Of a stretch of DNA of 46,145 bases, positions 32,999 to 41,990 are shown in pieces. Numbering within the stretch: position 1 is the stretch's first letter; each line of letters starts with the position of its first letter. The stretch is from contig JAYTOH010000070.1 of assembly GCA_043747895.1 (NCBI GenBank), positions 1-46,145 of the forward strand, written 5' to 3'. This DNA comes from Amoebophilaceae bacterium. GTDB lineage: Bacteria; Bacteroidota; Bacteroidia; Cytophagales; Amoebophilaceae. The notes beneath the pieces are model-generated. The model was not told the origin of the DNA. It ran no database searches and was given only the letters and a program-made list of their open reading frames with translations. The translations under genes were made by a program, and so were the position numbers.

Positions 32999-33541
32999 TA
33001 CTCAATTAAAATGAAGATGCGGCATTGCGCCCCTACGACAGGGCCCTGCTTTCTCCATATTTTTGTCTAGATCCAAGGCTGCCAGTGTGCCATGAATGCA
33101 TGCCACCAGCATGCAATGCTATACAGGACATGGTGGAAGGCCCACCGAGATCGGCTGGTATGAGCGCAGGTCTCAAACTGCCTTAAGCTGCTGTATCCTA
33201 AGGGATATGGTGGTGAGCGTTAAGGAAAAGGCTGGCAACAGTCAGGTGTGATCTATGCAGGTGAACAAGCGTGAAGCACTGTATTTACGTATCGAAAATT
33301 GTACTATTGAGTCAAAATTGTGGATCTTGGTACATCCACAAGATCAGGTAACTGGATGTCATACAACAACTGAGTTACTGACCAGCGGTACATAGGTGCC
33401 ACGAGCATAGATTAGGGTCCTGTATGGAACTTGGGAACCAATAGATCTTTCCAGCTATTGGGGGCAGATAAGCTTTTTTCAAAGGGACGGTTTGCAGTAC
33501 AGACGAGATGAAAACCCCGGCAACTTCATTCCGATCGAGTA
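32999..33541 (+). mobile_element. MITE copy interrupted by a group II intron fragment
   Basis: Left part 32999-33084; right part 33474-33541 ending CAACTTCATTCCGATCGAGTA|TA. Confidence 0.85.
33085..33473 (+). mobile_element. Group II intron (class D / RmInt1-like) 5' fragment, domain I
   Basis: Starts GTGTG; contains GGCCCACCGAGATCGGCT, GGTCTCAAAC, GCTGCTG...TGGTGGTGAGCGT, GGAACTTGGGAACC, GGGGCAGAT in RmInt1-like order; EBS1 hairpin at 33318-33341. Confidence 0.85.
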
Positions 33542-33827
33542 TATTTCCTTTGCTTGTATTAAATTACCCACTACCCATTACCTGCACGTACTGGCTCATA
33601 TTTTGACTCGGTTCTCAATCAAAAGAGCGTATCTACAGCAGGTAATTTTGATAATTTACGAATGATTTTTATGCTACTTGCTGCGTGAGCAAAGGGGCAA
33701 AATAGGCTTGTTTGCACCGAAACAACCAACAGACCGTCGGTATGAGCAAACGGTTGCTCTTAGGTGCTTTTTCACCTATTTTAACGTAAATTGGTTGCAC
33801 GAAATCTTTATTATAAACCAATACATT

Positions 33828-35981
33828 ATGTCCAAATTGAAAAAACGTCCAAAAGCCCAAACGAACGCAAAAATAATAGATTATACCGCATCTATTTTGC
33901 CCATTTTCAAACAAATTCCCCCTGTTTCCTACACAACCCAGGAGCTTTGTGCGCTTTTAAAATTGAAAAAAAAACGAGAAAAAGCTTCGGTAAAAGAGAC
34001 GCTACGACACCTTATAGCAAAAGGAACCATTCGAACAATAAACAAAGGACGTTATATATGTTGTACAACGCATCCAGAAGAAACCTATGCAGTAGGACGG
34101 GTAGATTGGGTACGTGCAGAGTATGCTTATATTGTAGTACCTGGTTTAGAAAAAGACATACTGGTTGTGCACCAGAACTTACATACTGCCTTAGACAAAG
34201 ATTTGGTTAAGGTCCGTTTGCTCCCTAAGAAACAACGCAAACGACCAGAGGGAATCGTAGTAGAAATTCTAGAACGCAGTACGGATCCGATCCTTGGACG
34301 AATCGTCGTTACAGGTCATTGCCCCAAAGCCCTTGTAGAACAACGAAAAGGAACGTACGAAATCGTATTGGAAGGAGAAAAACTGTCTGATTTACAAGAA
34401 AACGATAAAGTCGTTATAAAACCAACCTTGTTTCCAGGAAAAAAAGCCCAATTAACCGGGACCGTGGTGCACCATCTAGGGCCAGCTGGCATCCATGAGG
34501 TAGAGATGCATGCTATTATGGCTGAATTTGGATTGCCCTATGCTTTCCCCCCCCACGTATTGGAAAGCACGAAACAGTTGCCTGCCATTATTTCGGACCA
34601 AGAAATGGCCAACAGAAGGGACCTGCGTGGCATTCCTACTTTTACCATAGATCCAGCCGATGCACAGGATTTTGACGATGCGCTTTCGTATCAGAAACTG
34701 GAAAATTTACACCATCAAGTAGGCATTCATATTGCCGATGTAAGCTACTATGTACTGCCAGATACGCCATTGGACCAAGAAGCCTACTTGCGTAATACAT
34801 CTGTTTACTTAGTCGACCGTTGCATTCCGATGCTGCCTGAATTGCTTTCCAATGCATTGTGTTCATTGCGTCCAAACGAAGACAAGCGTACCTTTTCGGC
34901 TATTTTCGAACTGGACGATCAAGGAAAAGTCCATCACATGTGGTTGGGTGAAACGGTGATCCATTCCAACAAACGGTTTACCTACGAAGCAGCAAAAGCT
35001 ACTTTAGATGCACAAACGGGCGATTTTTATCCAGCCCTTGCTGCGTTAAATACCTTAGCCAAACGGCTTCGAGAAGAACGTTTGAAGCAAGGAGCCATTA
35101 ACTTTGAAACGCGAGAGTTGGTGTTCGAGCTGGATGAACAGGGAACACCGCTTCAGGTAGTCCCTAAAATCCGTACCGATGCCCATAAGCTTATCGAAGA
35201 GTTTATGCTGTTGGCCAACAAAGAAGTGGCCACTTACGTAGCAAAAATGAAACAAAAGCAAGAAAAAACAGGTCCTACGTTTGTGTATCGCACCCACGAT
35301 AATCCCGATCCAAAAAAATTAAATACCTTTTTTTTGTTCGTCAAACAATTGGGCTATACCATCAATCTAGACAAAGGACCTATTTTTAAGGCCATGCACT
35401 ACTTAGAAGAAGCCATACAAGGTACGCAAGAAGAGGACATCATTCATGCATTTGCCATTCGTTCCATGGCCAAAGCACTGTATACCACAGAGCCAAATCC
35501 ACATTTTGCACTGGCTTTCCGCCACTATAGTCACTTTACCTCGCCCATACGGAGGTATTCCGATGTGCTTGTGCACCGCTTGTTAAAGAAATACCTCCAA
35601 GGCGAAAAGACGTATGCGATAGCCGCTTATGAGGAAAAGTGCCGGTACGCAGTAGAACGGGAGCGCGTGGCGGCCAATGCCGAGAGGGCTTCGATTAAGT
35701 ACAAACAAGTAGAATTTATACGCAACTTGGGCGATCAGGTTTTAGAAGGCATCGTTAGTGGGTTAACCGAATGGAACATGTATGTAGAAATCCCATCCAA
35801 TGCGTGCGAGGGAATGATCGGACTATCAGACCTTTCCGATGACGTATATGTGTTTGAAGAAAAAAGCTTTCAGGTAGTAGGTAAAAAACACAAAAAGTGT
35901 TATCGACTGGGAGACTTTGTACAGGTTCAGGTAACAAATTGCGACTTAAATAGGCGGCTTATTCACTTTAAATTGGTCTAA
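33828..35981 (+). CDS. rnr: Ribonuclease R
   Basis: TIDPADAQDFDDALS, HIADVS, HFTSPIRRYSD, C-terminal S1 domain; ATG at 33828. Confidence 0.97.
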   Translation: MSKLKKRPKAQTNAKIIDYTASILPIFKQIPPVSYTTQELCALLKLKKKREKASVKETLRHLIAKGTIRTINKGRYICCTTHPEETYAVGRVDWVRAEYAYIVVPGLEKDILVVHQNLHTALDKDLVKVRLLPKKQRKRPEGIVVEILERSTDPILGRIVVTGHCPKALVEQRKGTYEIVLEGEKLSDLQENDKVVIKPTLFPGKKAQLTGTVVHHLGPAGIHEVEMHAIMAEFGLPYAFPPHVLESTKQLPAIISDQEMANRRDLRGIPTFTIDPADAQDFDDALSYQKLENLHHQVGIHIADVSYYVLPDTPLDQEAYLRNTSVYLVDRCIPMLPELLSNALCSLRPNEDKRTFSAIFELDDQGKVHHMWLGETVIHSNKRFTYEAAKATLDAQTGDFYPALAALNTLAKRLREERLKQGAINFETRELVFELDEQGTPLQVVPKIRTDAHKLIEEFMLLANKEVATYVAKMKQKQEKTGPTFVYRTHDNPDPKKLNTFFLFVKQLGYTINLDKGPIFKAMHYLEEAIQGTQEEDIIHAFAIRSMAKALYTTEPNPHFALAFRHYSHFTSPIRRYSDVLVHRLLKKYLQGEKTYAIAAYEEKCRYAVERERVAANAERASIKYKQVEFIRNLGDQVLEGIVSGLTEWNMYVEIPSNACEGMIGLSDLSDDVYVFEEKSFQVVGKKHKKCYRLGDFVQVQVTNCDLNRRLIHFKLV

Positions 35982-36162
35982 AGGAGGAATGCCTTTGCAA
36001 AATTTGTCCCTCAGGCACAAAAAAACTTTGTGGCACATTACGTATGGTGCCTATAGATATTAGATACTGCCCCATGGCTTGATCGCCAAGGGCAAATCAC
36101 ATAGCTTGTACGCATTATTTTTTCAATTGTCCATTTTTTGCGTACCTTTAGTGCAGGAGTTA

Positions 36163-41666: not shown

Positions 41667-41692
41667 TGCAAATAGGATTTGGTAGCGCATAT

Positions 41693-41762
41693 GACTCGAT
41701 CGGAATGAAGATGCGGGATTGCACCCCTACGACACGGTCCTTCTTGCTCCGTACTTTTGTCT
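41693..41762 (+). mobile_element. MITE left arm, ending at the intron junction
   Basis: GACTCGATCGGAATGAAGATGCGGG...GTACTTTTGTCT. Confidence 0.85.
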
Positions 41763-41990
41763 ATCGAGTCAACCGAGGATATCCTCCCAGTTGCGCACAC
41801 AACCGTATAGGATAGTCTTCCATCATACGGCTCTTTGCGGATTTATGCTTAGCATATACCAATGAACAAAGCGTATCTTACATTTGCCCTTGATGTTGTT
41901 GAGTTCTAACCAGGCTTTGCCTGGCTTGGCTTTTTTATCTTTTGCTTGATGTACTTCACTATTCGCTTGTCTAGGAATCTGGCTATTTTG
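41763..41990 (-). mobile_element. Group II intron 3' fragment: maturase C-terminus plus domains V and VI
   Basis: Minus strand: ...KAWLELNNIKGKCKIRFVHW (class D IEP end), DV GAGCCGTATGATGGAAGACTATCCTATACGGTT (41801-41833), DVI ending GACTCGAT. Confidence 0.85.

Follow-up and report, generated by a model that had tools for sequence, protein, structure and literature searches.

Contig JAYTOH010000070.1 of an Amoebophilaceae bacterium (assembly GCA_043747895.1) carries two fragments of a group II intron, each lodged in a copy of a non-coding MITE (miniature inverted-repeat transposable element). The window, by which we mean the whole stretch of 46,145 nucleotides that was analysed, is contig C70 of this host genome assembly (hereafter G000; 833 kb in 73 contigs, 98.6% complete). 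In the following, we describe the two fragments, their kin elsewhere in the genome and the MITE, and argue that they are probably the remains of an intron family whose guide sequences were matched to the core of this repeat.

The 5' fragment (33085-33472, forward strand) comprises most of domain I. It is preceded by the left part of a MITE copy, from the left terminal inverted repeat to the insertion point (32997-33084, forward strand), whose last bases form the 5' exon with the intron-binding sites IBS2 (TCCAA, 33072-33076) and IBS1 (CTGCCA, 33079-33084). The intron begins with GTGTG at 33085, directly after TCCAA-GG-CTGCCA, and its Rfam match (RF01999, group-II-D1D4-2, 33132-33247) scores 89.9 bits (gathering score 36); both the GTGTG start and the domain I structure are features of group II introns. 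At 33472 the window switches back to the MITE, while contigs from sequencing runs X4 and X5 carry on there with other, intron-like sequence. This MITE copy then resumes with its right end, right terminal repeat included, at 33473-33543 on the forward strand, so that the remaining intron and the middle of the MITE are deleted between 33472 and 33473.

The 3' fragment lies in the opposite orientation (41763-41992, minus strand) and consists of the C-terminus of a frameshifted reverse transcriptase (RT)/maturase open reading frame (ORF; about 41829-41992), followed by domains V and VI (DV-DVI; 41763-41835). On the minus strand it ends at 41763 with ...GACTCGAT, after which the left part of a MITE copy (41690-41762, forward strand) supplies the 3' exon, AGACAAAAG..., for an insertion in reverse orientation. 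A DV-DVI region and a terminal AY, in this case AT, are likewise group II features. The corresponding Rfam model (RF00029) matches this region at full length with 32.8 bits (E 1.4e-4), below its gathering score of 40, as is the 38.9-bit match of a second 3' fragment on contig C6, which is 85% identical; the Rfam comparison proposed in the first-pass annotation is thus clear for domain I and below threshold for DV-DVI. A complete MITE copy (41993-42210, forward strand; core TGATAC-AAAC-GTACGA) abuts the intron ORF and truncates it at a TA. The most plausible history of this locus is that the ORF received a second MITE at a TA and that a deletion, or recombination with the first MITE's right half, came afterwards. 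At the corresponding place in the related genome G010, the gap just after mnmG on contig C58 (L155, compared with 41690-42210 of the window) holds an intron-free MITE that points the other way. The positions that the first-pass annotation gave for the intron start, its two putative guide loops, the 3' end at 41763 and the empty target sites were all confirmed, whereas both fragments extend further than it had stated, the 3' one into the end of the RT ORF.

In G000 as a whole, the intron family is represented by four 5' starts (C70:33085+, C69:11609+, C64:2695- and C25:8204-) and two 3' ends (C70:41763- and C6:33624-). All six junctions fall inside the MITE, which makes up 2.0% of the genome, and within it at two positions only, the edges of an 18-bp palindrome. 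Three of the 5' starts and the C6 3' end use the forward point, which follows GTAYCA-like bases; the reverse point, which lies on the other strand at a distance of 16 bases, is that of the C69 5' start and of the window's 3' end. The proposal that the intron targets this repeat and occurs in it in both orientations is thereby borne out for G000, where not one junction has flanks unrelated to the MITE. Furthermore, 5' and 3' exons taken from different loci rejoin into the intact MITE consensus with no gap or duplication, again in both orientations. Such exact rebuilding of an empty site is what homing leaves, and it therefore ties the two types of fragment to one specificity. Other introns of the genus do not share this target, given that among 32 DV-DVI ends examined only the two belonging to the present family continue into the MITE.

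On the intron side, this specificity would reside in three exon-binding sites (EBS). EBS1 (TGGTAC, 33328-33333) forms the loop of the d3 stem-loop (33318-33341, forward strand), whose stem (33318-33325/33334-33341) also forms in the RNA fold and shows a compensatory change at 33320/33339, where a G-C pair in the window is replaced by A-T in the C64 copy and in study P3 (runs X4 and X10-X12). In five control introns, an EBS1 pairing 6/6 with its own exon lies 32 bases from a conserved anchor, and TGGTAC is found at the same offset. (Fourteen control introns were given; besides these five clean cases, two were misassigned, with the start of L077 off by two and L150 inside an ORF, and seven gave no line.) EBS2 (TTGTA, 33299-33303, forward strand), which pairs with TACAA at -13 to -9, is within one base of its position in the control introns. 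The EBS1 and EBS2 assignments of the first-pass annotation are in keeping with these offsets, and we add EBS3, a T at 33393 (forward strand) that pairs with the A opening the 3' exon. The EBS3 column covaries with the first base of the 3' exon in all four aligned introns, G with C and T with A; these are the window intron, a Rickettsia bellii plasmid intron and two S. meliloti introns that we identified from their exons as RmInt1-type and RmInt2-type. Judged by complementarity, all three sites would be able to pair with the exons, a feature of subgroup IIB.

The guide sequences fit one place in the genome particularly well. When both strands of G000 were scored for IBS1 (out of 6), IBS2 (out of 5) and the +1 base, all 15 sites with an IBS1 score of at least 5.5, an IBS2 of 5/5 and an A at +1 lay inside the MITE (2.1% of the positions). 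G000 has 15 occurrences of this motif, as against 0-2 per genome in 16 others of the genus, close to the 0-3 of a reversed-pattern control, which together with its confinement to the MITE marks the forward site as the programmed target. TACAA, to which EBS2 pairs at 5/5, is the commonest forward IBS2 as well, being found in 46 of 68 core rows of the MITE. The forward IBS1 is GTATCA in 6 and GTACCA in 10 of these rows, so that the perfect palindrome TGATAC-N4-GTATCA, attributed by the first-pass annotation to uninterrupted MITE copies in general, is a minority form, although it is indeed present at both sites that had been named, 9868-9883 and 36235-36250.

Owing to the imperfect palindrome of the core, IBS1, IBS3 and similar distal bases recur on the opposite strand, where IBS2 can form only three of its five pairs. 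The notion of a two-way landing pad was therefore overstated: while IBS1 and IBS3 are copied to the other strand, the reverse IBS2 is TACTT-like, usually with 3/5 pairs, and is TACAA in none of the 68 rows. Sites of this lower grade number 25 on the reverse strand of the MITE and 106 outside it. Could the intron nonetheless have been programmed for both strands, with a self-complementary target selected, both MITE strands used about equally and a site on the lagging-strand template guaranteed? The reverse IBS1 reads GTATCA in 32 of the 68 rows (with a few copies counted on both strands), and at C69 the reverse site was used although a perfect forward site 16 bases away was left empty. Moreover, distal bases at -17 to -14, a pattern picked after the sites had been seen, are kept at 14 of the 25 reverse sites, compared with 17 of the 19 best forward sites and 2 of the 106 equal-score sites elsewhere, and the same logic has been argued for RmInt2 (PMC4615759). 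Yet EBS2 fits the forward strand only, and the 5' junctions of three lineages comprise five forward, one reverse and one outside the MITE. In addition, the two reverse fragments of G000 lie on complementary MITE halves, the window 3' fragment on a left half (97% identical to the consensus) and the C69 5' fragment on a right half (89%), where the 90th percentile for MITE halves is 88%, and may thus be one insertion split by rearrangement. We consider equal programming of both strands doubtful.

Alternatively, the hairpins of the repeat rather than EBS2 pairing may attract the intron, in the manner of class IIC introns. On either strand, hairpins form in the MITE core (z -1.4 to -2.3), and the two insertion points lie at the sides of a 16-bp hairpin. 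These folds are weak, however, and the presence of an EBS2 that pairs at 5/5 with the commonest forward exon argues against such a mechanism, as does the encoded protein. With the C6 remnant as query, the closest intact proteins are P0001 and P0002 (both 413 amino acids; 81% and 72% identity) from relatives, and both have RT and maturase domains only (PF00078 and PF08388 in P0001) and no endonuclease. In our trees, which include no named class E or F references, P0001 and P0002 form a clade with the protein of the R. bellii plasmid intron, sister to the S. meliloti proteins in a 100-supported group. Going by the relative's protein, the intron itself would be RmInt1-like, and insertion guided by structure appears improbable.

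A further possibility is that the intron entered the MITE only once or twice and that subsequent copying of the MITE with its intron, through the IS630 transposase or duplication, accounts for the other copies. This would suit the window's 5' unit, which at 546 bp retains both MITE terminal repeats, and the abundance of IS630 in G010. By contrast, while the intron copies are 87-100% alike, the left halves of their host MITEs are 67-83% alike, against a background mean of 70%, which indicates that the intron moved on its own and not on a copied MITE. For three of the five left halves that bear an intron, the four nearest neighbours include none of the other such halves; the sole pair possibly sharing an event are the halves of C64 and C25, which are 83% alike and each among the other's nearest. 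Copying along with the MITE is accordingly disfavoured and, in our view, very improbable. The C6 3' fragment may be the other half of the C25 or the C64 insertion, and the minimum number of events in G000 is three forward and one reverse.

That the two kinds of fragment derive from two different introns sharing one repeat is highly improbable, since both stop at exactly the same two bases and since the ORF-less intron L013 of another genome (G004:C11) unites a 5' part resembling the window's 5' fragment at 84% with a DV-DVI resembling the 3' fragment at 79%, better than any other DV among 25 references, even if no contig read joins the fragments and G010, which has 5' fragments, lacks a clear 3' one. 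The sequences thus support a single intron family, as the first-pass annotation had assumed. L013 and L010 (G009:C1) are mini-introns (about 190 and 670 bases) that are internally deleted but keep both ends. G000 also holds an unrelated group II intron remnant, ORF-less and of RmInt1 type, at about 490-1118 of contig C25 (L001), and an unrelated decayed DV-DVI beside a MITE (C15:3602-3673, L004).

Taken together, we favour homing of one RmInt1-like, endonuclease-free intron family into the MITE through EBS1, EBS2 and EBS3 pairing, to which we assign a probability of roughly 80%. The intron would have retrohomed into an IS630-derived MITE by pairing its three guide sequences with TACAA-NN-GTAYCA|A in the core. 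The forward site would have been its programmed target, and the second-grade reverse site would have been used at least once. By analogy with RmInt1 and RmInt2, reverse splicing may have proceeded into the replication fork's single-stranded DNA, with a bias for the lagging strand. IS630 activity presumably kept supplying new, harmless intergenic targets, until later deletions, MITE insertion and probably recombination between MITEs broke every copy, so that nothing in G000 would now be able to move by itself. Indeed, a search of the genome contigs found no RT left in G000, and all intron copies found there are accordingly dead; collapsed repeats absent from the 73-contig assembly may nevertheless exist. 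The full-length copy with an RT ORF for which a search had been suggested thus did not turn up, the closest intact protein being P0001 of a relative, and RNA contigs contain the unspliced junction only.

Several observations weigh against this homing scenario. Two of the four 5' exons in G000 pair poorly at IBS1 (4.5 of 6 in the window and 4.0 in C25), and IBS2 of the window exon reaches 4/5; for the window this probably reflects decay after insertion, and we ascribe the poor IBS1 of both exons, without proof, to decay. Among the contigs read, none is a full-length copy with both fragments. Of the two insertions in G010, one has its 5' start at the forward MITE point, but the other lies outside the MITE, at a site scoring 5.5 for IBS1 and 3 for IBS2, so that the absence of unrelated flanks in G000 does not extend to this relative; the outside site is of the same pairing grade as the reverse MITE site. 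Likewise, the two fragments in the window have opposite orientations 8.7 kb apart, which misfits a strict lagging-strand rule unless the region was rearranged. Strand skew is flat in G000 and does not resolve the replichores. Finally, P0001 keeps the L and the LFAHW of the class D motif LX3AX3PXLF[V/A]HW but not the A and the P; slight departures from this motif are seen in the S. meliloti protein L216 as well.

Relatives of the intron are found in contigs of other sequencing runs. Study P3 yielded, in four runs, a single lineage with a divergence of about 7-10% from the window, whose contigs bridge the forward junction with a perfect exon, ...TACAAAAGTACCA. In run X10, the intron has a depth of about 1530 compared with 270-360 for flanking single-copy contigs, corresponding to about 4-5 copies. 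Among the contigs listed for this run, one at a depth of 990 (about three-copy) carries a G>C change at 33329 that turns EBS1 into UCGUAC, a variant predicted to pair with GTACGA, the form found in 2 of the 68 G000 core rows; we regard it as a lead only for a case of retargeting. Runs X3, X5 and X7, from three other studies, contain domain I pieces with few differences, none of them across the junction. Evidence from the runs was drawn from those parts of the window that their contigs cover. Two pattern scans of a collection of genome contigs, from which near relatives may be missing, returned no loci, and 32 of 32 loci from a metagenome pattern scan were rejected as chance matches without intron context. 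Viral contigs gave no match, plasmids none to the 3' fragment, and phages one protein at 37%. No closer full-length relatives were found in 401 genomes each of the class, the order and the phylum, where DNA matches to the 5' fragment reach 71-88% over short stretches and proteins at most 47% identity. RT domains also occur in very long open frames that are not intron-like, at G010:C68:10194-10670 (1310 amino acids), G010:C19:1371-1859 (1461) and G057:C39:3316-3786 (1651).

The repeat itself was taken for a MITE by the first-pass annotation, and its ends agree with this. A hidden Markov model search of G000 returned 132 hits covering 16,582 bases, of which 30 are near full length, about 220 bp and non-coding; the copies have a median identity to the consensus of 81%, and 24 of the 27 bases of the terminal inverted repeats are identical. 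In G010, the C-terminal part of an IS630 transposase is matched 28 times, almost always at the end of a contig (L181-L205, L210-L215; the family call, NF033545, was made on a relative's full protein). The MITE terminal repeat is also present at these loci, at all 16 right ends and all 4 left ends examined, and all 20 ends start with TA. The target-site duplication of IS630 elements is TA. In G000, one decayed IS630 piece is left, between terminal repeats of the MITE type (C2:12069-12701), and neither IS1595 nor Y1 transposases were found in G000 or G010. Based on the common terminal repeats, we consider the repeat an IS630-derived MITE, even though no clean pair of filled and empty sites was found at orthologous G010 loci. 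Of the 16 other genomes of the genus, 13 have matches to the MITE, which in 12 cases are confined essentially to the central hairpin core, and the eight core-only loci examined (L089-L096; G011, G003, G012, G002, G001, G009, G006 and G007) all have neither IS630 ends nor the target word. It therefore looks as if the MITE took up an older repeat, one that is multicopy in most of the genus, and as if the target word were peculiar to this lineage. In some MITE copies (G000:C16:6068-6204, C28:4188-4358), the arms of the core hairpin enclose an inverted loop. Inversion of the core hairpin was ruled out as the cause of the reverse intron orientation, because the flanks at C69 and at 41763 are normal bottom strand. 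At about 11900-12000 of G000 contig C14, a stretch inside a split MITE resembles, by eye, a 5S rRNA fragment in reverse.

Further MITE copies lie in the window. Empty two-strand targets are present at 9868-9884 and, within a full copy (36156-36374), at 36235-36251, each including the palindrome mentioned above. Full copies on the forward strand at 22978-23205 and 31766-31995 have a variant empty target near 23050 and a degenerate forward target, respectively. Between the two intron fragments lies the rnr gene (33678-35981), and mnmG (39804-41666) precedes the 3' fragment. A broken ORF (32600-33009) stops at the left end of the first intron-bearing MITE copy; Pfam and NCBIfam gave no match to it, and by eye we take it to resemble a cupin/JmjC fragment.

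Targeting of mobile elements by related introns is well established. RmInt1 of S. meliloti homes into ISRm2011-2, an IS630-family element (PMC4496777, PMC8914252), and RmInt2 of Sinorhizobium meliloti GR4, a class D, subgroup IIB intron without endonuclease, into both inverted repeats of ISRm17, for which its authors argue that two strands double the number of targets and assure one on the lagging strand (PMC4615759). Both reverse splice into single-stranded fork DNA with lagging-strand bias (PMC8914252, PMC4615759). The intron described here resembles RmInt2 in targeting a mobile element that is present in many copies and offers a site on either strand, in its U-A EBS3/IBS3 pair, in the two-base linker between IBS1 and IBS2 and in tolerating an IBS2 mismatch; its protein falls in a sister clade to that of RmInt2 and is about 40% identical. 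While the sites of RmInt2 are near-equivalent terminal inverted repeats of an autonomous IS, those in the present case are unequal and overlap in the internal palindrome of a non-coding MITE. With RmInt1, it shares an RT and maturase without endonuclease, the layout of EBS1, EBS2 and EBS3 and a home in an IS630-family element. RmInt1, though, homes into the IS itself, apparently with one site per element, and has a G at EBS3 instead of the U seen here, where IBS1 has 6 bases. As for class IIC, attC sites are among the targets of these introns. They also insert after terminators (PMC8643678), and the insertion beside DNA hairpins in non-coding repeats is similar here, but EBS2-IBS2 pairing is absent in class IIC. 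An abundant MITE of about 240 bp, MITECca01, is known from one strain, Cardinium cOegib, of what is presumably the same symbiont genus; its described origin from the IS982-family element ISCca4 (PMC9769881) sets it apart from the present MITE with its IS630 ends. Two-strand targeting of a mobile element is thus already known from RmInt2 (PMC4615759), and the non-coding MITE as target is the new twist; in the literature covered, which excludes most subscription papers and supplements, we found no published description of an intron programmed to a MITE core.

A bolder picture, tentative and on balance unlikely, is that of a three-tier chain of parasites in a living symbiont, still evolving, in which an IS630 transposase multiplies a MITE with a captured hairpin repeat, the intron reads a self-complementary word in this cargo and uses both strands on purpose, and the UCGUAC variant of the P3 lineage is retargeting to the drifting GTACGA form. 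If true, this would be the co-evolution of guide and target caught in the act, in a lineage with about 4-5 intron copies. More simply, the guide loops fit a non-coding MITE better than anywhere else in the genome, which suggests that the intron lived on safe sites continually made by a DNA transposon. Its value lies in being a clean case of an under-described pattern rather than a unique system, and with its overlapping, unequal sites, nature provides a test of the separate contributions of IBS2 pairing, distal exon bases and fork orientation to the choice of site.

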